IMG/VR virus record: IMGVR_UViG_2698536366_000004
Length of the DNA stretch: 13,840 nt
From: a virus
Lineage: Duplodnaviria > Heunggongvirae > Uroviricota > Caudoviricetes
Reading direction: 5' to 3' (one strand)
This document shows positions 1 through 13,840 of this stretch, piece after piece. A model generated the notes under the pieces. That model was not told the origin of the DNA, ran no database searches, and worked only from the letters and a program-made list of their open reading frames with translations. Position numbers and translations under genes: made by a program. The number at the start of each line of letters is the position of its first letter. Position 1 is the stretch's first letter.

Positions 1-367
1 CCTCAAAAACACCATCATACACTAAATCAGTAAGTTGGCAGCATCACCAGCCTTCTTGAGGCTACCACCTGTTTTCAGGTGTCATTCAGACGTGATTTGC
101 CCCAGATTGGGAAAGCACGCTTTTTTCTCAGCTATCGTCCTCTTATTTTGCCGTTACATTTCTTTTTGCATTCTAATGATTAATTTACAATAATAATATC
201 GGTAATTATTGAGTAATAATAAATTAATTATTGCAAATGTAATTTAATTCCATCTTCGCGTTATATTCCAATCTTTAATCTCCGCATGGAACAAGTTGCA
301 TGCGTGACTATATTAAGACGACTTATAACCACCAAAACATTTGCTTTGCAAGCAAAAACAGTGACCA

Positions 368-396
368 TTGACTCTAAGAAAATTCCGATCTATTGT
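368..396 (+). promoter_or_regulatory. Candidate sigma70-like promoter (TTGACT - 17 nt - TATTGT) in the AT-rich island
   Basis: ttgact at 368-373, 17-nt spacer, tattgt at 391-396; it lies upstream of a small hydrophobic ORF and a plus-strand terminator. AT-rich DNA produces many chance promoter-like matches, so this is weak. Confidence 0.2.
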
Positions 397-430
397 TAGG
401 GTCATCAAAGTTACTTAACAGTATTCCGAA

Positions 431-532
431 ATGAAAATACAAAGCAAGCTAATTGTCTTATTAAACATTATTATTGCATTTATATTATTTGAGCTTTTAG
501 CTCAAAAATTTGGTTTGAGTACATTATTTTAA
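431..532 (+). CDS. Hypothetical 33-aa hydrophobic peptide (MKIQSKLIVLLNIIIAFILFELLAQKFGLSTLF)
   Basis: ATG at 431, TAA at 530-532. Basic N-terminus followed by a ~20-residue hydrophobic stretch resembles a single-pass membrane peptide. No convincing Shine-Dalgarno upstream and it is below the ORF-track length cutoff. Confidence 0.2.
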   Translation: MKIQSKLIVLLNIIIAFILFELLAQKFGLSTLF

Positions 533-681
533 AGCAAGATAAACAATATCGGGCACTCTAGTTTTTATAATTAACAATTAAACGTCCATAAAATGTTATT
601 TACTTTTCTTCGCTATTGTCATATCTTAATATAGTGGCTTACGCCACTCTACTTTCATCACATTTTGTACGTTTATGTACT

Positions 682-714
682 CGCCATGAAGCTCTTTCAT
701 GGCGATTTTTTATT
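682..714 (+). terminator. Rho-independent terminator, plus-strand orientation
   Basis: Perfect 9-bp stem cgccatgaa (682-690) / ttcatggcg (696-704) with 5-nt loop, followed by attttttatt (705-714). No comparable T-run on the minus strand, so it would end a plus-strand transcript arriving from the AT-rich island. Confidence 0.55.
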
Positions 715-797
715 CTTAATCCAAGAACATACTCCCTACCTATAGCAAAATCACTTTTTTAACAAAAGAATAACGTATTTAGGTAATCATTACGAAT

Positions 798-1379
798 TTA
801 CCCTATAGGTGCTACTGGCCATTCAATATCCGGTGCAGTTGATGTATCAACACGGTTCAGCAACACCCGATACTTTTTCCAAGCTTCCAGCAACAAGGTT
901 TCTTTCTCCGTTGCGATCTCCAGATCCACAGCATCCTGAAGCGGCGCTATATGCTCACTGGCTACCTGCATCAGGCTGTTTTTTGTTTCTTCCGCCTCCC
1001 GGATCCGGAACAGTTTTTCTGCTTCCGTATCCTTCACCCAGGCTGTGCCGTTCCACTTCTGAAACTCCCCTTCCGGGGATAACCAGGTGACATTTTCCGG
1101 TAATGAGCCGAGTTCAGAAATAAATAACGCGTCGCCGGAAGCCACGTCATAAACCGTTTTACCCCGATGATCTTCAACGAGATGCCACGATGACTCATCA
1201 CTGTTGAAAACAGCCACGAAACCAGCCGGAATATCTGGCGGTGCAATATCGGTACTGTTTGCAGGCAGACCTGTATGAGGCGGAATATATGCGTCACCTT
1301 CACCAATAAATTCATTAGTTCCGGCCAGCAGGTTATAAATTTTTATGGTCCGTGCTTGTTCACTCATTCTGAATGCCAT
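798..1379 (-). CDS. tfa: Tail fibre assembly protein Tfa (193 aa)
   Basis: ORF starts [44 protein letters not shown], near-identical over its length to phage lambda Tfa as I recall it. Its ATG overlaps the stf stop (TAATG), and it is in the canonical position after stf. Confidence 0.92.
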
Positions 1380-4300
1380 TATGCGAGCCTCACAATATAG
1401 TTAAATGCGATGTTTTTGACGGTGTTTTCCGCGTTACCAGCAGCGTTAACGGTGATGGTGTGTCCATGTGAACCAATCGCAACAGAGTGCGTATGAGCAC
1501 CAATACCGACAGTATGCGCGTGTGCACCCGCAGATGCTGCTGTGCCGGACAGTGAGTGTGTATGGTTTCCTTCTGAAGATGATTTACCTACCCATTGGGA
1601 GGTGCCACTGGTTAATGAGCCACTGATACCAACCTGATTAGTCCCGCTAACTTGAGTACTCCCTGCCGGAAACATTCCAGTAGGTTGACTCCCGCTATTC
1701 GTTCTGGGCCCAGTCTGACTATGTTGGTGGGCCCCAGCTGAACTTGTAGAGCCGCTCAGACTGTGCGTATGCGCCCCGGTGTTATTCGTGGATTTAGTGC
1801 CGTAATCAAACGACGATGTGGTTTTCGTCCCCAAATCCGTACTGGATGCGCTGGCGCTGTGGGTGTGCGATTTAATGCCATCCTGTTCCTGAGACAATAC
1901 GGCACGACCACTGGCGGGCTTGCCCTTAATCGTCCAGCCACGCATATCAGGGATCACGCCTGACGGATAAGCGGCTGCAAGTTTCGGGTAAGCAGATTTG
2001 TCAAAAGTCTGCCCCTGCATCAGGGCATAACCAGACGGAACGGTATCTGATGGCCACGGGATTGGTGCACCGACTGGATAAAACTCTGCAGGAGGATGAG
2101 CCGAGGTGTAAAGCTGCGCCCACGGCGACCAGTTTGCGTCGGTCGTATCCCGTCGTGAACGAATAAATGCCGGAGCATGAGCACCGCTTGTACCACTCCA
2201 GCCGATGAGTAACTCACCTTCGCCAACGGCTGTCATCCCTTTCAGGTGAATGATATTTCCATACGCTGTTGGATATCCGTTGTTATACACCTCGTATAAC
2301 TCAAGACCTGCTGCCCCCTGCGTATTGTCTGTCAGCGCGGCTACCCGACCTTTTGAAGCCAGATTAACTGATGATACTGCTGTTCCACCTGACGGTAGCG
2401 CCCCGATCTCTGATGCCGTTGGCTTATTTCTGGAGTTATAGTCCCTTCGCCAGCCAGGTGAATAATCTGTTCCGTGATTAATATAGGTAAACTGGGCGTT
2501 GGTTGTTCCGCCACCGCTGGATGTGGTCGGAGTGGTAATGCGGATCGTCATCGCTGACTTTATCCCCATTACTTCAATGACAGCTCCGGCGAGATGAATA
2601 TTACCGCAGCCAGTATCAGTAATGATTTTATTATTGCCATAAGACCAGGAACCCTTGCACATCCAGTATGGATGGTTAAATGCTCCCTGAGAATCCAGCC
2701 ACTCGATAAACTGTGCAGTCGTCCAGTTTCCTGTTGTTGTGCTTACTGACCCACCGAAGGCACGGCAGGCACCAATATTTTTCGTAAAGGTGTCTTTGCC
2801 AGGGATATCCGCACCGTTCTGATCTTTCTGCAGACGTTTCTCAGCATTGTCATTGGCTGCTTTTACTGCCTTTGGCGTTGCCGCCAGCGTTTCAGACGTG
2901 CTGTTGGTCGCGCTGCTTAGCTGGATTATCCCTTTCTGTGCTGTCGTTGCATCCTGTGCGGTGTATTTCCCGTTAGCCAGGTCATACGCGGCCTTAACGG
3001 CTTTTGGTGTTGCCGCCAGTGACTCGGAAGTGCTGTTAGTCGCACTACTGAGCTGTACTATCCCCTTTTTCGTCGTGCTCGCATCCTCAAGCGCCACGGC
3101 GGATGCAATATCCTCTGCCCGTTTTGCCGCTGTCTCAGCGCGCGTTGCTGCAGATTCCGCCGTACTTTTGCTCTGAGCTGCTGCCGTCGCACTACCAGCA
3201 GCCTCTGTCGCCTTCGTGGATGCCGTCGTGGCGCTGCCCTTCGCTGCTGACGCCTGTCTGGTCGCCTCATCTTTTGAAGCAGACGCCGATGATGCCGATG
3301 ACGCCGCCGAACTGGCGGACGATGCGGCAGCCGTTTTTGAGGATTCTGCACGGGTTTCCGACGCTTTCGCGTTCGTTTCGGATGTCTTCGCTGCGGAAGC
3401 TGACCTCGCTGCTGCCGTGGCCTGCTCAGTGGCTTCGCCAGCCTTCGTTGTGGCTGTTGAAGCGGATGATGCGGCGCTTTCTGCCGATTTTCCGGCGGCG
3501 GTGGCACTGGCTGAGGCCTGCCCGGCACTTGTTGACGCGGCGCTGGCAGACGACGCAGCCGCTGTTTTTGAGCCTGCCGCAGCTGAGGCACTCTGTCCCG
3601 CTGCCGTTTCAGAAGACCTGGCGTTCGTCTCGGACGTTTTGGCCGCCTTCGCAGAATTTGCAGCCGCCGTCGCCGAGGAAGCTGCGCTACTGGCGCTTGA
3701 TGATGCGTTCGTTTCTGATGATTTTGCCGCCTCTTTTGAAGCCGACGCATCCCGGGCTGAGGTGGCAGCTTCTGACGCTTTCGTGGTCGCGGTGGATGCA
3801 GAAGTGGCTGCTGATTGTTGTGACGCTGCCGCATTCGTTTCTAACGTTTTCGCCGCACCGGCACTGGTAGCCGCCGCGCTTTTTGAGGACTCTGCAGCGG
3901 CAGCACTTTTTGAGGCTTCAGTGGCCTTTGTTGATGCCGTTCCTGCGCTGGAAGACGCTGACTGAGCCGACGAAGCGGCCTGTCCGGCTGACGTGCTGGC
4001 TGCACGTGCTGAATCTGCAGCATCAGTCGCATGGGTTGCCGCCTCACGGGCTGATGTGCTGGCATCGCTGGCTGATTTCTTCGCGGCTGCCGTGTTCTGT
4101 GCCACCGCGGACGCGTTACGCGCCACCTCTTCCACCATCAGCTCAAAACGGCGCAGTGCCTCCGGACGGGCATCATCCTCCGTCATGGCACCGAGAAAAT
4201 CATTCAGCGTACCGGGTCGGGAATCTTCATACACGGTGATGGTCCCGGCATGTGACGGCGGGAATCCTTCCACCAACAGAATAACGCTGTACTGACCGTA

Positions 4301-4462
4301 CTCAACGTCCATGCTGTAACGCCCGGCTTCATCCGGATTTTCTGAGGCCAGCGTGTTCACCACCACCGTGGTGCTGTTACGTTTTGCTTTCAGCTGGATT
4401 GTGCAGTTCTGTACCGGTTTTCCTGTGCCGTCTTTCAGTACACCTGAAATCTTTACTGCCAT
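1379..4462 (-). CDS. stf: Side tail fibre protein Stf (about 1027 aa from the ATG at 4460-4462; the track's GTG at 4466-4468 adds 2 codons)
   Basis: N-terminus [26 protein letters not shown] matches lambda Stf. Long Ala/Ser/Thr-rich low-complexity shaft, duplicated [26 protein letters not shown] tail-fibre motif, and His-rich GAHxHS C-terminal repeats ending [11 protein letters not shown] as in lambda Stf. GGGGTGA Shine-Dalgarno-like sequence upstream of the ATG. Confidence 0.9.
2857..3070 (-). repeat. Two ~80-bp direct repeats inside stf encoding the duplicated tail-fibre motif
   Basis: Segments ~2857-2938 and ~2988-3070 are highly similar at DNA level and encode [28 protein letters not shown] and [28 protein letters not shown]. 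Confidence 0.6.
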
Positions 4463-4473
4463 ATTCACCCCAC

Positions 4474-4500
4474 AAAAAAGCCCGCCTGAACCGGCGGGCT
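4474..4500 (-). terminator. Rho-independent terminator after lom copy 1, immediately upstream of the stf ribosome-binding site
   Basis: Minus-strand reading gives an 8-bp GC-rich stem (agcccgcc 4479-4486 / ggcgggct 4493-4500), 6-nt loop, then TTTTTT (A-run 4474-4479 on plus strand). Confidence 0.6.
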
Positions 4501-4560
4501 GTCATAACACTGTGTTACCTGGCTAATCAGAATTTATAACCGACACCCACGATGAAACCG

Positions 4561-5043
4561 TCAGTGCGCCAGAGACGTGTTGCTGTGGCGACCGTCATCA
4601 CTTCCGGTCAGCACATCGTGCGTTTTCCCCTTATTGTCAGTTACGCGGATATAATCCCCGGAAAAAGTCGACACACGGCTGTAAGCCACACCCGCCATCG
4701 CATACGCGCTGAACCATTCATTCACGCGCACAGACGGCCCCGCCATCACGCTGAACCAGCGGTTACGCACGGAATCTTCATGCCAGCGGGTATCGCTGTA
4801 ACGGGTCAGCTGGCGATTCTTGTCTCCTGCATAGCTGAATGACGTCACCAGCCCCAGCGTATCCGTAAACTCATAACGGTATTTCACGTTAATCCCGTTC
4901 AGATCATCACTGCCGGGAACGTTGGTCCGGGCATGAAGATACCCCGCGCTCAGCGTGGACTGATGTTCAGACGCCCATGCAGGCGCACCGGATACGGCCA
5001 GACAGATGGCTGCGGACAAAATGGCTGCACAAACTTTACGCAT
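4561..5043 (-). pseudogene. lom copy 1: Lom/Ail/PagC-family outer membrane protein gene disrupted by an 83-bp internal deletion (frameshift, 160-aa product)
   Basis: Signal peptide and first ~150 residues match lambda Lom. Compared with intact copy 2, the 83 nt between two cgccag hexamers (copy-2 coordinates 7940-8022) are missing, so the frame shifts and the product ends ...NTSLAH. The original GVGYKF-stop codons are still present out of frame at about 4527-4547. Confidence 0.75.
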
Positions 5044-5063
5044 AATTACCTCTCGCTTTTCTG

Positions 5064-5091
5064 CAATAAAAAAGGCGTCATTCCTGACGCC
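5064..5091 (-). terminator. Rho-independent terminator between the J1 fragment and lom copy 1
   Basis: Stem ggcgtca (5074-5080) / tgacgcc (5085-5091) with 4-nt loop; the minus-strand hairpin is followed by TTTTTTATT. A GAGAGG Shine-Dalgarno for lom follows. Confidence 0.55.
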
Positions 5092-5113
5092 ATTTATTGG
5101 GGTTATAAATATT

Positions 5114-7417
5114 TCAACGAATACTGATGCCGGAAGCCGCTTTTTTGGTCACAATCACCGTACAGTCGGTGATATTGCCTGCCCCCTGATTGCCTTTCTG
5201 GAAAATCTTAAACTCCAGAGTGACGCTACCACCACCACTAGGCATATCAATAACTGCACTGTAACTACCGGGAATGGCACCTTTAGTTTCTCTGGATGCG
5301 ATTAATACGCCGTTTTTGCGAACTTCAAAACCATAACCCGTGTATCGCGTGCCTCCTGGGTTATTTCCGCTCCCCGGATCGTCATACGCTATACCGTTAA
5401 AAATAATGGGCGGAATAATAATCTGGCGGTCAAAGTTATGATCATCGCTTATGGTGACTGTAACCGTCCCGTTTGGTGTTTCCGTGTTACCCCACGTACC
5501 AGCCTGTTTCGGAAATGATTTGGATACAGCTTTAACGAAGTCACCTCTGACCTGAGTCGCCTCCAGCATGCCCTTAATCGTACAGTTTTCATTTACCGTG
5601 ACATTGTTGAGCGTCCCGGCGTTCGCATTCACACTGCCACTGATATCCGCATTTTTAGCGGTCAGCTTTCCGTCCGGAGTCAGGGAAAATGCCGATGGAT
5701 TTCCACCGCTGGTAATGGTGGGGGCCGTCAGGCGTTTCAGGAACACGTCGTTCATGAATATCTGATCGCCCTGACCAACAAACATCGGTTTTGTGTTGCC
5801 ATTCGCAGGATTAACCATCGCAATCCTGTCCGCCGCCAGCAGCACCTGACTCTGCATGCCGTCAGGGGTGTTCTCAATACCGGCACCAATACCCGCGATA
5901 TAAAGGCGTCCGTCCTGCATCTGCTGCAGCTTCACAGCCCACATGCTGTTCAGGTTATTATTTGTATCAACCTGAACCTTCTGTATCTGCTGAATTGCCG
6001 CACTCTGGTCTTCCAGTTTCTTATTGACGGTCTGCGTGATTTCATTGCTGACATCCGTAATGGACGTCCTGATTTCAGCCAGGTCAGGCGCAAGCTGACC
6101 GTTATCAATCTGCGTCCACAGCTCCTGAGCCAGATGGGTTTTCCCTATCTCGCCTTTGAAAAAATCCAGATAACCGGATGCATCATCACTCGGCTGACCA
6201 ACAGCCTCCACGAATGCCGATTTGCCAACGGTGTTCACACTGCGGATATAAAAGTAATAATCATGGCCCGGTTTGATATTGATACTGGCGGCTATCCAGT
6301 ACAGCGCCGTGCCAAGATAGCGTGCTGTGGTTTCAACCTGCCTGATATCCGCAATCCGCTTTTCCGAGAACCAGAACTCAAACTGTACCGTCGGATCATA
6401 AACCGCAAGATGCGGCGTGGCGGTTATCTGAAAATAGCCCGGCGTCAGCTCAATCCGCGACAGCGCTGCCGGTGCGGCAATCCGGAACGATACCGACGCC
6501 GGATCGCCCTGCTGCCCCCACGCATTTACTGCCCGGACTGTCAGCCTGTAGTTCCCCAGCGCCAGTTGTGTGAAGCGGTAAGTGGTTTCCGTCGTCCGGG
6601 CCGTGCTGACCAGCCGCTCACTGCCGTCATCCGCTGTTACGGTCAGACGGAGCAGGAAGCTCACGCCCTTCACCACCTTCGGCGTGTCCCAGCGCGCCAG
6701 CACCTGATATTCCCCGCTGTCTGCGGTGACTTCGGCAGTCAGGTGCTGCACCGCTGGCGGCGTGACACCATTCACCGTGCCGCTCTGGTCGCCGTCAAAG
6801 TGCGCCCCGTTATCCACGATGGCTTCTTTTTCCGGCACATGCTGCACGGCGGTGATGGCATACGTGCCGTCGTCGTTCTCACGGATACTCACGCAGCGGA
6901 ACAATCGCTGGTGCAGCGTCGGCAGCTTCAGCCCCCACACGCTGTATTCAGCAACACCGTCAGGAACACGGCTCACTTTTACCTTCACGCCGTCGGTGAC
7001 GGACTGGACCTCCACGCTGACCGGATTCCCCTGCCCGTCAACCAGGCTTATCAGCGTGGTGCCGGAGGATGGCAGCGTGATTTCACGGTCGAGCGTCAGC
7101 GTCCGGGTCTGGCTGTTCACCGCCAGCACGCGCCCGCCGGTGCGGATACCGGCATAGTCATCATCGCAGATTTCAATGACATCGCCCGGTACATGACGAA
7201 GCCCTTCAGCACCCACGCTGAAATCCACGGTCTGCGTCTCCAGCAGTTCCGTTTTAATCAGCCACAGCCCGGCAGTCTTTCTGGCTGGCGGTTCAGGGTA
7301 TTTGAGGTAGCGTCTGACCGTCCGTTCAGAGCAACCAATCTGAGTCGCAATATCGACGATGTACGCGCCCTGCTGGCGCATTTGCTTTATCATGTAAAAG
7401 TCCTCTCTGCTCAGCAT
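5114..7417 (-). CDS. Chimeric ORF (767 aa): 48-aa helix-turn-helix N-terminus of an IS21-family IstA-like transposase fused in frame to the C-terminal ~719 aa of host specificity protein J, with receptor-binding C-terminus variant A
   Basis: N-terminus [48 protein letters not shown] has a classic HTH and matches my memory of the IS21 IstA start. From [14 protein letters not shown] onward it is collinear with J; DNA homology to full J ends at 7273/7274. It has its own ATG (7415-7417) preceded by AGGA at 7-nt spacing. The last ~150 aa are unrelated to the C-terminus of copies 2 and 3. Confidence 0.7.
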
Positions 7418-7518
7418 GTTGATGTCCTTTCTGGTGTGAGAACCTTAAGGAAACAACATGTTGGGTGGAGCGGACAATCCAAATGGCGAATTACCGTCTT
7501 ATATCACTGGCGCTGACA
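7274..7518 (-). mobile_element. IS remnant (left end plus first 48 codons of an IS21-family istA-like transposase gene)
   Basis: J homology stops abruptly at 7273/7274 and is replaced by sequence encoding a transposase-like HTH N-terminus. The minus-strand sequence begins TGTCAGCGCCAGTGATATAAGACGG near 7518, a plausible IS terminus (TG...). The left boundary is approximate and the rest of the element is absent. Confidence 0.5.
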
Positions 7519-7830
7519 CTTCATCACCTCCGGACGTAAATCACCATCCTTTGGTGCATTCAGAAACGCGTTCAGTGTCCCCGGTGCATCAGTCGGTGCC
7601 ACATCAATATCCCCGACACGGGTTGGCTGCCAGCCGTTACAGTGAAGCGCAACCTCGTAATACCCCGGCTCAGCCTCAATCACATAAGCACCGTTATTGT
7701 CCGTCACGCAAGTGGCAACAACGTGTGCCACAACGGTCGGACTGGTTCTTCTGGCCCGCAGTTCAATCGCACAATTTACGACAGGTTTACCCGCCCCATC
7801 TTTCAGTACACCTGAAATCTTTACTGCCAT
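7504..7830 (-). pseudogene. Truncated second side-tail-fibre gene: Stf-like N-terminal domain only (108 aa), interrupted by the IS remnant
   Basis: Starts [28 protein letters not shown], the same start motif as Stf, in the same context (lom terminator then GGGGTGA Shine-Dalgarno then ATG at 7828-7830). It diverges from Stf after ...GDLRPEV and ends in IS-derived codons MKCQRQ-stop. The track ORF 7504..7872 is an upstream GTG extension. Confidence 0.65.
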
Positions 7831-7841
7831 ATTCACCCCAC

Positions 7842-7867
7842 AAAAAGCCCGCCTGAACCAGCGGGCA
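7842..7867 (-). terminator. Rho-independent terminator after lom copy 2
   Basis: Stem gcccgc (7848-7853) / gcgggc (7862-7867); minus-strand hairpin followed by TTTTT (A-run 7843-7847). Paralogous to the 4474-4500 terminator. Confidence 0.55.
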
Positions 7868-7893
7868 GTCATAACACTGTGTTACCTGGCTAA

Positions 7894-8493
7894 TCAGAAC
7901 TTATAACCGACACCCACGATGAAACCGTCAGTGCGCCAGTCACCACTGCCGGAACCTTCATAAGCAAGGTCAATGGCCACGGATTCGGTCGGGTTAAACT
8001 GCACGCCAGCCCCCCACGCCAGAGACGTGTTGCTGTGGCGACCGCCATCACTTCCGGTCAGCACATCGTGCGTTTTCCCCTTGTTGTCAGTTACGCGGAG
8101 ATAATCCCCGGAGAAGGTCGACACACGGCTGTAAGCCACGCCCGCCATCGCATACGCGCTGAACCATTCATTCACGCGCACAGACGGCCCCGCCATCACG
8201 CTGAACCAGCGGTTACGCACGGAATCCTCATGCCAGCGGGTATCGCTGTAATGCGTTTTTTGCTCATCTTCAGCGTTGGCATAACTGAATGACGTAATCA
8301 GCCCCAGCGTGTCCGTAAACTCATAACGGTATTTCACGTTAATGCCCTTCAGGTCATCGCTGCCTGGCATATCAGTATGGGTCTGAAGATACCCGGCGCT
8401 CAGCGTGGACTGATGTTCAGACGCCCATGCAGGCGCACCGGATACGGCCAGACAGATGGCTGCGGACAAAATGGCTGCACAAACTTTACGCAT
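7894..8493 (-). CDS. lom: Lom outer membrane protein, intact (199 aa; Lom/Ail/PagC/OmpX family)
   Basis: Signal peptide MRKVCAAILSAAICLAVSGAPAWA followed by a mature beta-barrel sequence ending GFIVGVGYKF, collinear with lambda Lom. GAGAGG Shine-Dalgarno 7 nt upstream of the ATG. Confidence 0.9.
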   Translation of the reverse strand: MRKVCAAILSAAICLAVSGAPAWASEHQSTLSAGYLQTHTDMPGSDDLKGINVKYRYEFTDTLGLITSFSYANAEDEQKTHYSDTRWHEDSVRNRWFSVMAGPSVRVNEWFSAYAMAGVAYSRVSTFSGDYLRVTDNKGKTHDVLTGSDGGRHSNTSLAWGAGVQFNPTESVAIDLAYEGSGSGDWRTDGFIVGVGYKF

Positions 8494-8513
8494 AATTACC
8501 TCTCGCTTTTCTG

Positions 8514-8541
8514 CAATAAAAAAGGCACCATTTCTGGTGCC
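8514..8541 (-). terminator. Rho-independent terminator between the J2 fragment and lom copy 2
   Basis: Stem ggcacca (8524-8530) / tggtgcc (8535-8541); minus-strand hairpin followed by TTTTTTATT. The stem differs from the 5064-5091 paralogue by compensatory changes that keep pairing. Confidence 0.55.
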
Positions 8542-8560
8542 CGTATCTGGGTTATAAAAT

Positions 8561-10455
8561 TCAGCTAATCGTGATGCCTGCAGTGGCTTTCTTCATCACC
8601 ACAACCAGCAAATCGCTGATACTTGCTGTGGGATACCAGCCATTTACCAGCCATGCCGATACAGAAAACTCCAGCGTCATGTGACCGTGACCGGCAGGCA
8701 TATCAATAACACCCGTATATATCAGCGTATTATCCAGGGTCGTTCGGTTATAAATTTCAGCACCGTTTTTCTTCACTATCAGGCGGCATGACGAATAAAT
8801 ATTGTTATTCTTCCGCTCATGTTTAGCACCGCGAAACGCCACCGCGGGAATAACAATTTGCCGATCAAACGGCTGATCGTCATAAACCCTGACGGTAATG
8901 GTCCCTGATGGCCACCTCTCCGGTGCCCGGGAGTCCCGTGGGAAAGGTTTGCCCACTGTTTTAACGAGATCGCCTTCAATCTGGTTCGCGGACAATTTTC
9001 CCAGAACCCGACAGTTCTTATTAATCGTGACGTTGTTGAGCGTCCCGGAGTTCGCGTTCACGTTACCGCTGATATCGGCATTTTTCGCCGTCAGCCGTCC
9101 GCCAGGTGTCAGGGAAAATGCCGGAGGATTACCGCCGCTGGTAATGGTCGGAGCCGTCAGGCATTTCAGGAACACGTCGTTCATGAATATCTGATCGCCC
9201 TGACCAACAAACATCGGCTTTGTGTTGCCATTCGCAGGATTAATCATCGCAATCCTGTCTGCCGCCAGCAGCACCTGACTCTGCATTCCTGCTGGCGTAT
9301 TCTCAATACCGGCACCGATACCCGCAATATAAAGGCGTCCGTCCTTCATCTGTTGCAGCTTCACAGCCCACATGCTGTTCAGGTTATTATTTGTATCAAC
9401 CTGAACTTTCTGTATCTGCTGGATTGCAGCACTCTGATTTTCCAGTTTTTTATTGACGGTTTGCGTGATTTCATTGCTGACATTCGTAATGGACGTCCTG
9501 ATTTCAGTCAGGTCCGGCGCAAGCTGACCGTTATCAATCTGCGTCCACAACTCCTTGCCGAGATGCGTTTTATTGATCAACCCTTTATAAAAATTCAGAT
9601 AACCTTCTGCATCATCGCTCGCCCGACCGATGGCCTCCACAAATGCCGATTTGCCAACGGTGTTCACACTGCGAACGTAAAAATAATAATCATGGCCCGG
9701 CCTGATATTGATACTGGCGGCTATCCAGTACAGCGCCGTGCCAAGATAGCGGGCGCTGGTTTCAACCTGCCTGATATCCGCAATCCGCTTTTCCGAAAAC
9801 CAGAACTCAAACTGCACCGTCGGGTCATATACAGCCAGTTTCGGGACCGCCGTTATCTGAAAATACCCCGGTATCAGTTCAATAGTGACAGGCGCTGCCG
9901 GTGCCGCAATCCGGAACGATACCGACGCCGGATCGCCCTGCTGCCCCCACGCATTTACTGCCCGGACTGTCAGCCTGTAGTTCCCCAGCGCCAGTTGTGT
10001 GAAGCGGTAAGTGGTTTCCGTCGTCCGGGCCGTGCTGACCAGCCGCTCACTGCCGTCATCCGCTGTTACGGTCAGACGGAGCAGGAAGCTCACGCCCTTC
10101 ACCACCTTCGGCGTGTCCCAGCGCGCCAGCACCTGATATTCCCCGCTGTCTGCGGTGACTTCGGCGGTCAGATGCTGCACCGCTGGCGGCGTGACACCAT
10201 TCACCGTGCCGCTCTGGTCGCCGTCAAAGTGCGCCCCGTTATCCACGATGGCTTCTTTTTCCGGCACATGCTGCACGGCGGTGATGGCATACGTGCCGTC
10301 GTCGTTCTCACGGATACTCACGCAGCGGAACAGACGCTGGCGCAGCGTCGGCAGCTTCAGCCCCCACACGCTGTATTCTGCAACGCCGTCAGGAACACGG
10401 CTCACTTTTACCTTCACGCCGTCGGTGACGGACTGGACCTCCACGCTGACCGGAA
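8561..10455 (-). pseudogene. 5'-truncated host specificity protein J fragment (J2; C-terminal ~626 codons, receptor-binding variant B), no native start
   Basis: Collinear with the C-terminal 626 aa of full J. It begins mid-gene at VEVQSVTDG directly at the junction with truncated lom copy 3 (10455/10456). The track's start is a GTG with no evident Shine-Dalgarno. Confidence 0.75.
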
Positions 10456-10896
10456 TCCGGTCAGCACATCGTGCGTTTTCCCCTTGTTGTCAGTTACGCG
10501 GAGATAATCCCCGGAGAAGGTCGACACACGGCTGTAAGCCACGCCCGCCATCGCATACGCGCTGAACCATTCATTCACGCGCACAGACGGCCCCGCCATC
10601 ACGCTGAACCAGCGGTTACGCACGGAATCCTCATGCCAGCGGGTATCGCTGTAATGCGTTTTTTGCTCATCTTCAGCGTTGGCATAACTGAATGACGTAA
10701 TCAGCCCCAGCGTGTCCGTAAACTCATAACGGTATTTCACGTTAATGCCCTTCAGGTCATCGCTGCCTGGCATATCAGTATGGGTCTGAAGATACCCGGC
10801 GCTCAGCGTGGACTGATGTTCAGACGCCCATGCAGGCGCACCGGATACGGCCAGACAGATGGCTGCGGACAAAATGGCTGCACAAACTTTACGCAT
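10414..10896 (-). pseudogene. lom copy 3, 3'-truncated: first ~147 codons of lom joined at 10455/10456 to J-derived sequence, reading through 13 out-of-frame codons
   Basis: Identical to lom copy 2 from the start codon through ...DVLTG, then [13 protein letters not shown]-stop encoded by J-derived DNA. Lacks the C-terminal beta-strands. Confidence 0.75.
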
Positions 10897-10916
10897 AATT
10901 ACCTCTCGCTTTTCTG

Positions 10917-10944
10917 CAATAAAAAAGGCACCATTTCTGGTGCC
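10917..10944 (-). terminator. Rho-independent terminator between full J and lom copy 3
   Basis: Same hairpin as 8514-8541 (ggcacca / tggtgcc) followed by a T-run on the minus strand. Confidence 0.55.
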
Positions 10945-10963
10945 CGTATCTGGGTTATAAAAT

Positions 10964-13840
10964 TCAGCTAATCGTGATGCCTGCAGTGGCTTTCTTCATC
11001 ACCACAACCAGCAAATCGCTGATACTTGCTGTGGGATACCAGCCATTTACCAGCCATGCCGATACAGAAAACTCCAGCGTCATGTGACCGTGACCGGCAG
11101 GCATATCAATAACACCCGTATATATCAGCGTATTATCCAGGGTCGTTCGGTTATAAATTTCAGCACCGTTTTTCTTCACTATCAGGCGGCATGACGAATA
11201 AATATTGTTATTCTTCCGCTCATGTTTAGCACCGCGAAACGCCACCGCGGGAATAACAATTTGCCGATCAAACGGCTGATCGTCATAAACCCTGACGGTA
11301 ATGGTCCCTGATGGCCACCTCTCCGGTGCCCGGGAGTCCCGTGGGAAAGGTTTGCCCACTGTTTTAACGAGATCGCCTTCAATCTGGTTCGCGGACAATT
11401 TTCCCAGAACCCGACAGTTCTTATTAATCGTGACGTTGTTGAGCGTCCCGGAGTTCGCGTTCACGTTACCGCTGATATCGGCATTTTTCGCCGTCAGCCG
11501 TCCGCCAGGTGTCAGGGAAAATGCCGGAGGATTACCGCCGCTGGTAATGGTCGGAGCCGTCAGGCATTTCAGGAACACGTCGTTCATGAATATCTGATCG
11601 CCCTGACCAACAAACATCGGCTTTGTGTTGCCATTCGCAGGATTAATCATCGCAATCCTGTCTGCCGCCAGCAGCACCTGACTCTGCATTCCTGCTGGCG
11701 TATTCTCAATACCGGCACCGATACCCGCAATATAAAGGCGTCCGTCCTTCATCTGTTGCAGCTTCACAGCCCACATGCTGTTCAGGTTATTATTTGTATC
11801 AACCTGAACTTTCTGTATCTGCTGGATTGCAGCACTCTGATTTTCCAGTTTTTTATTGACGGTTTGCGTGATTTCATTGCTGACATTCGTAATGGACGTC
11901 CTGATTTCAGTCAGGTCCGGCGCAAGCTGACCGTTATCAATCTGCGTCCACAACTCCTTGCCGAGATGCGTTTTATTGATCAACCCTTTATAAAAATTCA
12001 GATAACCTTCTGCATCATCGCTCGCCCGACCGATGGCCTCCACAAATGCCGATTTGCCAACGGTGTTCACACTGCGAACGTAAAAATAATAATCATGGCC
12101 CGGCCTGATATTGATACTGGCGGCTATCCAGTACAGCGCCGTGCCAAGATAGCGGGCGCTGGTTTCAACCTGCCTGATATCCGCAATCCGCTTTTCCGAA
12201 AACCAGAACTCAAACTGCACCGTCGGGTCATATACAGCCAGTTTCGGGACCGCCGTTATCTGAAAATACCCCGGTATCAGTTCAATAGTGACAGGCGCTG
12301 CCGGTGCCGCAATCCGGAACGATACCGACGCCGGATCGCCCTGCTGCCCCCGGGCATTTACCGCCCGGACTGTCAGACTGTAATTCCCCAGCGCCAGCTG
12401 CCTGAAGCGGTATGTGGTTTCCGTCGTCCTGGCTGTGCTGACCAGCCGCTCACTGCCGTCGTCCGCTGCCACGGTCAGGCGAAGCAGGAAGCTCACACCC
12501 TTCACCACCTTCGGCGTGTCCCATCGCGCCAGCACCTGATATTCCCCGCTGTCTGCGGTGACTTCGGCGGTCAGATGCTGCACCGCTGGCGGCGTGACAC
12601 CATTCACCGTGCCGCGCCGGTCACCGTCAAAGTGTGCCCCGTTATCCACGATGGCCTCTTTTTCCGGCACATGCTGCACGGCGGTGATGGCATACGTGCC
12701 GTCGTCGTTCTCACGGATACTCACGCAGCGGAACAATCGCTGGTGCAGCGTCGGCAGCTTCAGCCCCCACACGCTGTATTCTGCAACGCCGTCAGGAACC
12801 CGGCTCACTTTCACCTTCACGCCGTCGGTGACGGACTGGACCTCCACGCTGACCGGATTGCCACTTCCGTCAACCAGGCTTATCAGCGTGGTACCGGAGG
12901 ACGGCAGCGTGATTTCACGGTCGAGCGTCAGCGTCCGGGTCTGGCTGTTCACCGCCAGTACGCGACCACCGGTGCTGATACCGGCATAATCATCATCGCA
13001 GATTTCAATGACATCACCCGGTACATGGCGAAGCCCTTCTGCGCCCACGCTGAAGTCCACGGTCTGCGTTTCCAGCAGTTCCGTTTTAATCAGCCACAGC
13101 CCGGCTCGGTGTGCCTGCCCCCGGCTGGTACAGCCAAAGGCATCCATCTTCGTGACATTACGACCGTAACGGGCAATGGCCTGCGTATCCTCCACAAGCT
13201 CTGTCGCCGTCTCCCAGCCGTTATCTGGGTCAATCCAGTTCACCTCAACGGCATTATGGCGGTCCTTCAGGGCGCTGAAGCTGTAGCGGAACGGCGCGCC
13301 ATCGTCCGGCATCACCACATTACTGCGGTTATAGGTCCACACCTTATCCGACGGTCGGTCCTGCACGAACGTCAGCATCTGTCCGTTCCATACCGGCATA
13401 CAGCGCATCGCCGAGCAGAAATCACTGAGAACATCCCACGCCTTACGCTGTGTGGTCAGGTAAGAGTTACAGGTGATGCGCGGCTCCGTGCCGCCAAATC
13501 CGTCCGTCACTGACTGGTCGCAGTACTGGCCGATGACATACAGCGCCCATTTGTCCACATCTGCCGCACCAAGACGTTTCCCCATGCCGTAGCGCGGATG
13601 AGTGAGCATGTCCCACAGACACCAGGCCATGTTGTTGCTGTATGCTGGCTTAAGCGTTCCGTCCCAGATACCGCTGTATTGCCGCGTCTGCGGGTTATAG
13701 TTCGACGGCACCTGCAGAATGCGCCCGCGAAGATGATAATTGCGACTCACCTGCTGGTTACCGAACTGCTCTGAATCCACCTGCACGCCGACCAGCGCCG
13801 TGTTCGGGTAGCACTGTTTCACATCGATGATTTCGGTGTA
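10964..13840 (-). CDS. J: Host specificity protein J (tail tip / central tail fibre), 5'-partial (C-terminal ~958 codons in window), receptor-binding variant B
   Basis: Collinear with lambda J from ...[22 protein letters not shown] through the fibronectin-like repeats; the frame stays open to the window edge. The last ~150 aa differ from lambda's LamB-binding C-terminus. The track's start at 13822 is an internal GTG; the gene continues upstream beyond the window. Confidence 0.92.

Follow-up and report, generated by a model that had tools for sequence, protein, structure and literature searches.

Introduction

The receptor-binding cassette of the J protein decides which bacteria are entered by a lambdoid phage, including the long-tailed Shiga-toxin phages and engineered lambda delivery particles. 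In the lambda–LamB complex, the trimeric porin receives four bottom loops of the J homotrimer, and these loops (L1–L4) are described without residue numbers (PMC11101478). Exchange of J cassettes between lambdoid prophages has been described for J residues 960–1132 (Maddamsetti et al., 2018; PMC6646904). Lambda-type J proteins also use other porins. OmpC is the receptor of A8 (PMC11338833), and a Keio knockout with complementation showed that phi330 requires ompC (PMC12502783). The OmpC alleles accepted by A8 differ from those accepted by 1A2, another natural gpJ variant that likewise uses OmpC (PMC11338833). Mathieu (2020) distinguished only four J clusters, which did not track host range, and a receptor-prediction preprint of 2026 covers Drexlerviridae-type J and not the lambda type.

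Gene organization of the window

The window, that is, the whole stretch of DNA analyzed, is the entire 13,840-bp draft contig CXDO01000151.1 of Shigella sonnei (GCA_001248255.1). It carries three J-type ORFs, J1 (5114–7417), J2 (8561–10444), and J3 (10964–13822+), on the minus strand, which also encodes the other genes described below. The Pfam domain order in all three copies is Ig_J, Ig_J_second, Phage_Tail_Tip, and Ig_GpJ_C, and the C-terminal sequences quoted for them in the original prediction are correct.

The side tail fibre assembly gene tfa (798–1379) and the side tail fibre gene stf (1379–4468) were identified by Pfam matches (phage_tail_N, Phage_fiber_2, Collar, and Caudo_TAP across 798–4468) and are colinear with S. 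sonnei 53G. The lom' gene (4561–5043), located 3' of J1, ends prematurely; its 160-aa product (Pfam Ail_Lom, positions 1–159 of 199) occurs identically in finished genomes. Directly past the J1 stop codon, there is a terminator-like hairpin with a T-run (5074–5091, minus strand). The last ~157 aa of J1 plus the stop (5114–5590; Pfam Ig_GpJ_C) constitute its C-terminal receptor-binding domain, hereafter module A, and the J1 body (5591–7273; Pfam Ig_J, Ig_J_second, Phage_Tail_Tip) comprises the end of the hub domains, two Ig/FNIII domains, a helical shaft, and the central straight fibre. At position 7274, the middle of J1 is joined to an IS21-like fragment through one filler base unlike either partner. 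The fragment (7275–7417; weak HTH_23 match) consists of the first 48 codons of an IS21-family istA-like transposase in frame with J1; an IS21-like ISEc62 istA is annotated at the equivalent place in a related E. coli record, and the colinearity of this piece with a finished S. sonnei locus (L008) extends to position 10598.

Then follow stf' (7504–7872), a 122-aa N-terminal side tail fibre fragment (phage_tail_N, positions 1–104 of 134), and a full-length lom of 199 aa (7894–8493; Ail_Lom, 1–199 of 199); finished S. sonnei genomes likewise have lom followed by an identical 122-aa stf' product. J2 consists of the 151-aa module B with its stop (8561–9016; Pfam PF12421) and a truncated, mosaic body (9017–10444), assigned by identity to the finished loci L004 and L008. 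A second lom' (10414–10896; Ail_Lom, 1–155 of 199) is cut at about codon 147 by a join between mid-lom and mid-J2 at position 10455, where one filler base forms the centre of a 10+10 nt palindrome. J3 carries module B again (10964–11419; 151 aa plus stop; PF12421) on a body (11420–13840) that runs past the contig end and was assigned by identity to finished locus L008. Terminator-like hairpins are found at the stop codons of both alleles: the one 3' of J2 (8523–8542, minus strand) has compensatory stem changes relative to the J1 hairpin, and an identical copy lies 3' of J3 (10926–10945, by sequence identity).

Domain family and predicted folds

The original prediction regarded A and B as two unrelated modules, neither of them lambda-like. 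Both were instead found to be members of a single family. Module A matches Pfam PF12421 (Ig_GpJ_C) with 89.9 bits over profile positions 1–134 of 135, and module B with 125.9 bits (J2) and 125.1 bits (J3) over positions 2–135, against a curated gathering cut-off of 26.2 bits. In phmmer searches against the PDB, both aligned over the full length with lambda J 905–1131 (E = 5e-63 for A, 1e-73 for B), and A8 gpJ was aligned by both as well. BLASTP aligned A with B unbroken to the final residue, with a score 46 standard deviations above shuffled controls (z = 46) and 63 of 147 residues identical, which contradicts the claim that only short motifs are shared downstream of the break. An alignment of seven distinct domain types has 35 invariant columns, so A and B are homologous. 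Both modules lie at the extreme C-terminus of J, right after Phage_Tail_Tip and the central straight fibre, and the proposal that the last ~150 aa form a receptor-binding module is supported.

Structure prediction, the comparison that the original prediction had proposed, returned the lambda J fold for both modules (TM 0.70–0.73). The AF2 model of module A has a pLDDT of 74.7, with core blocks mostly at 87–97, and that of module B (J3) has a pLDDT of 77.0; the input alignments were shallow (14 sequences) and the model termini are of low confidence. The top Foldseek matches of module A were 9wcb, 8xck, 9wca, and 8xcj (TM 0.71–0.73), and module B matched 9wcb/9wca (62% identity) and 8xck/8xcj (TM 0.70–0.73). 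These four entries were the sole strong matches of either module (E 1e-14 to 1e-17); the lambda J entries 8xck/8xcj reached TM 0.72–0.73 with E 2.5e-15 to 7e-14, and the next, unrelated matches had E >1e-4. In the models, the two modules share an Ig-like beta-sandwich superposable on solved lambda J. Both C-termini therefore fall in one characterised domain family, which is the domain-family half of what the original prediction had named as evidence against itself. They would represent types of the lambda gpJ C-terminal receptor-binding domain, an Ig-like beta-sandwich expected to form trimers at the tip of the central tail fibre.

Cassette borders

The J2 and J3 modules are identical at 453 of 453 nt. 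Upstream of an 'NC' motif, J1 and J3 share 521 of 562 residues (92.7%), whereas downstream only 63 of 147 (42.9%) are identical. At the DNA level (45-nt windows), identity between J1 and J2/J3 is 96–100% down to ~5740 and ~80% at 5720–5600; from ~5590 to just short of the stop codon it is 31–71%, mostly <60%, and it climbs back towards 70–78% around and after the stop codon. Since DNA identity drops from ~5590, the border had been placed correctly (about 5590/9020), and the protein and DNA profiles together confirm a break at ~5590/9016/11419. The divergent block is a discrete cassette, with a ~93%-identical fibre region upstream and identity recovery at the stop codon; the sharp break at about residue 960–980 with conserved flanks on both sides is that of a recombining J specificity cassette. 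Such cassettes may be exchanged between lambdoid prophages through homologous recombination in these flanks. Taken together, the two J endings are very probably common, catalogued alleles of the lambda-type receptor-binding domain that differ by a cassette swap between prophages.

Variable segments

Between domain types, a conserved scaffold (51–58% identical) is interrupted by four hypervariable, indel-rich segments (16–29%), with indels at lambda positions ~1012, 1048–49, 1077–78, and 1107. The lineage-defining hot spots of the J 'specificity region' lie at the same four positions (Maddamsetti et al., 2018; PMC6646904). The idea that divergence is limited to loops of the predicted structure was rejected, with strands 39% and non-strand residues 44% identical; conserved top loops confound this strand/loop test, and the four indel-centred segments were therefore used instead. 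These segments may correspond to the receptor-contacting bottom loops L1–L4 of the solved lambda structure.

In the variable segments, which contain indels, A shares 16% and B 21% of residues with lambda, so LamB binding is not expected of either module. Neither has the lambda-like variable segments, including the residues around 1012 and 1107, that characterise a LamB-type module, and the LamB-contacting loop sequences of lambda are absent from both. In this sense, the sequences agree with the original suggestion of non-LamB receptors. That one of them nevertheless keeps LamB as its receptor is quite improbable. The shared scaffold, the position of LamB as the archetypal receptor of the J domain, and the single mutations that shift J among LamB, OmpC, and OmpF speak for it, but the indels fall at the very positions of receptor choice, the segment identities are as low as given above, and B clusters with OmpC binders.

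Prevalence and functional state of the modules

Among 5426 complete E. coli genomes (a collection that excludes Shigella), module A occurs in 2113 (~39%) and module B in 3378 (~62%). Module A is also present in 74 phage records, being 95–99% conserved in 72 of them. These records include plaque-formers on K-12 (grown on MG1655, MC1061, and K12), and the module is further found on Stx1a and Stx2c phages of O157. A-type phages able to grow on K-12 are PhiR11_1, PhiR26_1, mEp332, Ayreon, and phi458, whereas vB_EcoS-640R1, PhiR5_1, PhiR40_1, and VT1-Sakai are of the B type. The dN/dS of module A relative to phage PhiR11_1 is 0.10, and the intact 1165-aa J of finished S. sonnei genomes terminates in this module, within an apparently complete tail operon.

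The J1 ORF of the contig is missing ~446 codons at its start and is joined to part of a transposase gene, as would be seen if module A were the decaying remnant of a functionless pseudogene. This reading is extremely improbable, as the same sequence terminates an intact J of finished genomes whose tail operon is complete, is under strong purifying selection, is carried by plaque-forming phages, and has a confident fold prediction. The phage conservation, the dN/dS value, and the intact finished-genome J exclude the decayed, non-folding variant A that had been raised as an alternative.

Comparison with finished S. sonnei genomes

Finished S. sonnei genomes have one intact 1165-aa J (module A) and one intact 1159-aa J (module B) on separate prophages. 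J1 residues 49–767, including module A, are 100% identical to residues 447–1165 of the S. sonnei 53G J protein, which is intact at 1165 aa, and window positions 1256–7273 are 99.97% colinear with the 53G chromosome. At L008, an intact J of 1159 aa and the 5' end of lom together match positions 10456–13840 with 99.9% identity, and this one finished locus takes both window pieces, 7275–10454 and 10456–13840. Apart from its 5' part, the J2 body is identical to L008, the J of the module-B prophage (100% at positions 9400–9949). The 5' part (9950–10454, ~500 nt) is 98.6% identical to L004, the J of the module-A prophage, and 95.4% identical to L008; with 7 mismatches, it matches neither finished copy exactly. 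No colinear match to the whole window was obtained among the complete E. coli genomes, since that collection leaves out Shigella, from which the contig comes.

Judging from the sequence, scaffolding appears to have created the joins at 7274 and 10455, and the tandem J3-J2-J1 layout is probably a repeat-induced assembly or scaffolding artefact. Alternatively, illegitimate recombination among the prophages of a Shigella genome rich in IS elements may have produced the J3-lom'-J2'-lom-stf'-IS21'-J1' array, which would then be a genuine strain-specific rearrangement. IS insertions heavily disrupt the prophages of S. sonnei, the perfect 10+10 nt palindrome at 10455 could promote recombination, internally duplicated J fragments occur in other S. 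sonnei records (e.g., P0075), and the J2 5' part is unlike either finished copy, so a third, truly rearranged copy in the strain is possible. However, the exact J1 and J2 products are confined to this one contig, at least 25 finished or long S. sonnei contigs have intact single J genes at both loci, each join has a single non-templated base, and the contig stops at a repeat boundary on either side (IS1 and the conserved 5' region of J). A real array is therefore considered unlikely, and an artefact is preferred; in real S. sonnei, the two alleles would be carried by separate intact J genes of two prophages. The case also holds a lesson on data quality, as short-read Shigella assemblies of repeat-rich prophage tail regions can give chimeric contigs that mimic tandem arrays.

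Putative receptors

The sequences of A and B are different enough to support the expectation of different receptor specificities. Each allele may dock the J trimer on a different outer-membrane protein and thereby trigger tail opening. Module B is 64% identical in the receptor-binding domain to A8, 67% to ev203, and 63% to Stx2-1717; at 59–67% identity to the A8/phi330 type, it belongs to the same supercluster as a distinct type. The phi330 domain is 98.7% identical to that of A8, and PDB 9wcb is, by its entry title, the A8 gpJ–OmpC complex. On account of the shared supercluster, OmpC is the most likely candidate target of module B, with about even chances of being the right one; its use by B is an extrapolation, given only 44% identity to A8 in the variable segments and the differences in OmpC alleles between A8 and 1A2. 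The 1A2 sequence, sought in the supplements of PMC11338833 to see whether 1A2 is B-type, was not found among the delivery data provided there.

Module A is clearly outside the A8/phi330 type (45% identity overall, 18% in the variable segments) and is not closely related to any characterised type; no receptor data for A-type carriers (mEp460, PhiR phages, and gut lambda isolates) were found in the literature. Its receptor should be present on E. coli K-12 and is most likely another trimeric porin. Possibly, though with the odds against it, A recognises an outer-membrane receptor other than LamB, OmpC, and OmpF, one not yet assigned to any J domain of the lambda type. If so, its assignment would close the widest gap still left in the map of lambdoid prophage receptors.

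It is also conceivable that A and B share one receptor protein, such as OmpC, and differ in the allelic variants accepted, their divergence reflecting an arms race over a single receptor. The A8 and 1A2 gpJ proteins set this precedent, phage 434 J uses OmpC (PMC11101478), and Gifsy-1 J does so with a C-terminal region 18% identical to that of lambda by the count of the source paper. Yet A resembles lambda (41% identity) about as closely as it does the OmpC binders (45% to A8), and its variable segments differ from those of A8 by 11 gap columns at 18% identity. A common receptor thus seems rather unlikely, and different receptors for the two alleles are favoured.

Comparison with known systems

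The lambda gpJ domain (~981–1132; PF12421; PDB 8XCK closed, 8XCJ with LamB) is of the same family, C-terminal position, and fold as A and B (TM ~0.72). Its scaffold is 51% identical to theirs, including the motifs DDxxFDRQ, KNG, DMPxGxG, and KK..GI, but overall identity is 41% and the variable segments diverge with indels (16–21%). The A8 gpJ/phi330 type (PDB 9WCA; 9WCB with EDL933 OmpC; Brodel et al., 2024; PMC12502783) is the best PDB match of both modules. B groups with A8, ev203, and Stx2-1717 and shares 64% of residues with A8 (74% in the scaffold), whereas its variable segments are 44% identical and lack the 5-aa insertion of A8 in segment 2; A is 45–46% identical to A8 overall and 18% in the variable segments. 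As both modules are members of the solved lambda/A8 family, it should be possible to graft them to lambda J at the fusion point already published, which would allow a direct receptor readout.

Among Salmonella relatives, Gifsy-1 J (which binds OmpC, BtuB, and OmpX), compared by its description, has a conserved body, a divergent C-terminal receptor domain, and a non-LamB receptor, and Fels-1 is 47–50% identical to A and B. The J 'specificity region' (lambda J 960–1132) of Maddamsetti et al. (2018) has the same border, four indel hot spots, and a phylogeny unlinked to that of the remaining J sequence, and does not differ substantively from the pattern of A and B. In the genome set of that study, mEp460 and cdtI carry module A and Stx2a_WGPS2 carries module B. 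Both alleles are abundant and already annotated, and the pair described here is an instance of a published pattern, in which the modularity, the hot spots, and the division of J adhesins into several clusters were already known.

Gene organization of the contig

An exact-protein look-up showed that the window is the entire contig CXDO01000151.1 of the draft assembly GCA_001248255.1, with proteins deposited as Shigella sonnei. All large genes are on the minus strand, and the gene order thus runs from high to low coordinates. Three copies of the lambda-type tail-tip gene J are present, including J3 (10964-13822), which runs off the contig end, an N-terminally truncated J2 (8561-10444), and J1 (5114-7417), in which 48 codons of an IS21-family transposase are fused in frame to the last 719 J codons. 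J3 is followed by a lom fragment (10414-10896), J2 by a full lom (7894-8493) and a side-tail-fibre fragment (stf', 122 aa, 7504-7872), and J1 by a prematurely ended lom (4561-5043), stf (1379-4468), and tfa (798-1379). The early-stopping lom product downstream of J1 (160 aa vs. 199) also occurs in finished S. sonnei genomes and is therefore a real pseudogene, not a contig error. The Ala/Ser-rich repetitive middle of stf (3058-3965) contains long spurious ORFs (249–258 aa) in other frames on both strands. About 63 bp within tfa (1193-1255) are missing from strain 53G, where tfa is called at 150 aa vs. 193. The stretch downstream of tfa (1-797) is low in GC (33–38%), has no ORF of at least 60 aa, and in finished genomes its end lies about 8 bp away from an IS1 copy.

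Sequence contrast and common fold of the two J endings

The two J endings, module A of J1 (5114-5590) and module B of J2 (8561-9016) and J3 (10964-11419), are homologous to each other, as two alleles of the receptor-binding domain of lambda J, rather than unrelated modules. The C-terminal sequences quoted in the original prediction are correct, and the contrast it drew is real and does fall in the receptor-binding part of J. The modules of J2 and J3 are identical (453/453 nt). Between J1 and J3, 521 of 562 residues (92.7%) are identical upstream of a shared NC motif and 63 of 147 (42.9%) downstream. In 45-nt windows, DNA identity between the A and B copies is 96–100% down to about 5740 and about 80% at 5720-5600. 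Between about 5590 and the last bases ahead of the stop codon it is 31–71%, with most windows under 60%; at the stop and in the intergenic region beyond, it climbs back towards 70–78%. This profile bears out both the coordinates and the sharp break predicted at about 5590. Contrary to the original prediction, A and B share more than short motifs downstream, as their BLASTP alignment reaches the last residue; its score is 46 standard deviations above shuffles, and 35 columns are invariant among seven distinct natural types of the domain.

The Pfam family PF12421 ([quoted passage not shown]) matches all three copies over the whole profile, with 89.9 bits for module A and 125–126 bits for module B against a curated cut-off of 26.2. 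In a sequence search against solved structures, both modules align uninterrupted to lambda J 905–1131 (E = 5e-63 for A, 1e-73 for B), and “A8 gpJ 713”, from a natural lambda-type variant, aligns better than lambda J (E = 2e-72 for A, 5e-97 for B). AlphaFold2 models, which rest on a 14-sequence alignment, have mean pLDDT values of 74.7 (A) and 77.0 (B), with a confident beta-sandwich core and disordered ends. For each model, Foldseek returned only four strong PDB matches (TM 0.70–0.73, E = 1e-14 to 1e-17), namely A8 gpJ with OmpC of E. coli EDL933 (9wcb), A8 gpJ in the closed state (9wca), and the lambda fibre in the closed state (8xck) and with LamB (8xcj); the remaining matches are ten orders of magnitude weaker. 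The family match, alignments, and structural matches together refute, at the level of family and fold, the view that the modules are unrelated and that neither is lambda-like.

A terminator-like hairpin with a T-run lies directly 3′ of each J stop codon (5074-5091, 8523-8542, and 10926-10945, the last by identity). The stems differ between A and B by compensatory changes (GGCGTC/GACGCC vs. GGCACC/GGTGCC), so the hairpin has been retained despite its position at the border of the divergent cassette. Every J copy has the conserved motif QIFMNDVF, whose phenylalanine (Phe554 of J1, 5756-5758) is the counterpart of lambda J F924, the residue that a 2026 study (PMC13043305) reported to trigger HepS, a prophage-encoded abortive-infection nuclease. 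Judged from this correspondence, the J proteins of the window would be HepS triggers.

Origin of the three-copy array

Finished S. sonnei chromosomes contain the exact stf of the window, and ahead of it lie the same 160-aa lom' and an intact J (1165 aa) whose upstream tail operon is complete. Residues 49–767 of J1 are 100% identical to residues 447–1165 of this J, and window 1-7273 is colinear with strain 53G (99.7–99.97%). A second, IS-riddled S. sonnei prophage has an intact J (1159 aa) together with lom (199 aa), the stf' seen in the window (122 aa), and the IS21 fragment; 10456-13840 (99.9%) and 7275-10454 (99.2%) map to overlapping parts of this one locus (L008). In L008 (10456-13853), IS3-family elements interrupt this IS21-like istA fragment and additional IS insertions disrupt the tail genes upstream, so this module-B prophage appears defective though its J is intact.

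The joins at 7274 and 10455 consist of exactly one base each, matching neither partner; such a single filler base would be expected from closing the gap at a scaffold join of one N. The join at 10455 is also the midpoint of a perfect palindrome (10+10 nt), GCTGACCGGA-T-TCCGGTCAGC, to which lom sequence and J sequence both contribute. One contig end abuts an IS1 copy and the other lies within the conserved 5′ part of J, and the exact J1 and J2 products were found on this contig only. The simplest reading is that the array consists of three repeat-bounded pieces from two prophages, possibly three, joined by a short-read assembler or scaffolder; a genuine strain-specific rearrangement is improbable. 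J2 itself is a mosaic. Over its first ~500 nt (9950-10454), it shares 98.6% identity with the module-A prophage J vs. 95.4% with the module-B prophage J; the remainder matches the module-B prophage J at 100%, and J2 shows zero differences from J3 over the last ~1450 nt. J2 would thus stem from a chimeric path in the assembly or else be natural, as a recombinant or a third copy. Public databases contain many chimeric “J” fragments (protein matches P0053, P0056, P0059, and P0075). In some, the N-terminus of stf, or an unrelated N-terminus, is joined to the final 55 aa of module A, and one S. sonnei J is internally duplicated; this pattern points to frequent misassembly, or frequent real rearrangement, at the locus.

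Distribution and putative receptors of the two alleles

Module A is 95–99% identical in 72 of 74 phage records, including cdtI, mEp460, mEp332, Evi, 2B8, Ayreon, phi458, phage 2851, Stx2a_WGPS6, and many Stx1a and Stx2c phages, and its DNA is present in 2113 of 5426 complete E. coli genomes; against phage PhiR11_1, its dN/dS is 0.10. Module B is 92–95% identical in about 55 phage records (among them vB_EcoS-640R1, PPompW prophages, Stx2a_WGPS2, P-EibA, and VT1-Sakai) and present in 3378 of the same genomes. Both are therefore living, selected alleles, not decay products, and both are already abundant and annotated.

A pairwise matrix of thirteen domains resolved about nine types at 40–56% mutual identity and one supercluster (63–89%) of A8, Lambda_ev203, Stx2-1717, and module B. 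A8 is a natural variant grafted onto lambda by Brodel et al., with OmpC as receptor (PMC11338833), and 9wcb is the complex of the two. The phi330 domain is 98.7% identical to that of A8, and phi330 does not plate on the Keio ompC deletion strain unless complemented (PMC12502783). Since module B is 59–67% identical to this OmpC-using group, OmpC is the best guess for its receptor; we put it at an even chance because the variable segments of B and A8 are only 44% identical and OmpC-binding J variants differ among themselves in the OmpC alleles accepted (PMC11338833).

Module A is a separate type in the matrix, its nearest other type being an uncharacterised metagenomic sequence (54%), and a literature search for receptor data on module-A carriers found none for any carrier. 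Growth on K-12 strains is recorded for several module-A phages, so the receptor must be present on K-12. By analogy with the trimer-in-trimer docking on LamB and OmpC, it would most likely be a trimeric porin.

Variable segments and the known specificity region of J

When lambda, A8, B, and A are aligned together, indels occur near lambda positions 1008–1014, 1048–1054, 1077–1078, and 1103–1107. Within four segments chosen around them (1006–1017, 1042–1054, 1069–1081, and 1099–1113), identity between types is 16–29%, compared with 51–58% outside; for B and A8, 74% of positions outside the segments are identical. A strand/non-strand split of the A and B models did not separate conserved from variable positions. 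The lambda domain inserts four bottom loops, L1–L4, into LamB (Ge and Wang, 2024; PMC11101478), and we infer that the four segments are these loops, which that study describes without residue numbers.

The indels fall at the same four positions where Maddamsetti et al. (2018; PMC6646904) reported critical residues and lineage-defining indels (lambda J 1012, 1107, 1048–49, and 1077–78). That study described J 960–1132 as an independently recombining “specificity region”, and its genome set took in module-A phages (mEp460, cdtI) and a module-B phage (Stx2a_WGPS2). Exchange of the region as a cassette, the location of the hot spots, and the division of J adhesins into several clusters have all been published already.
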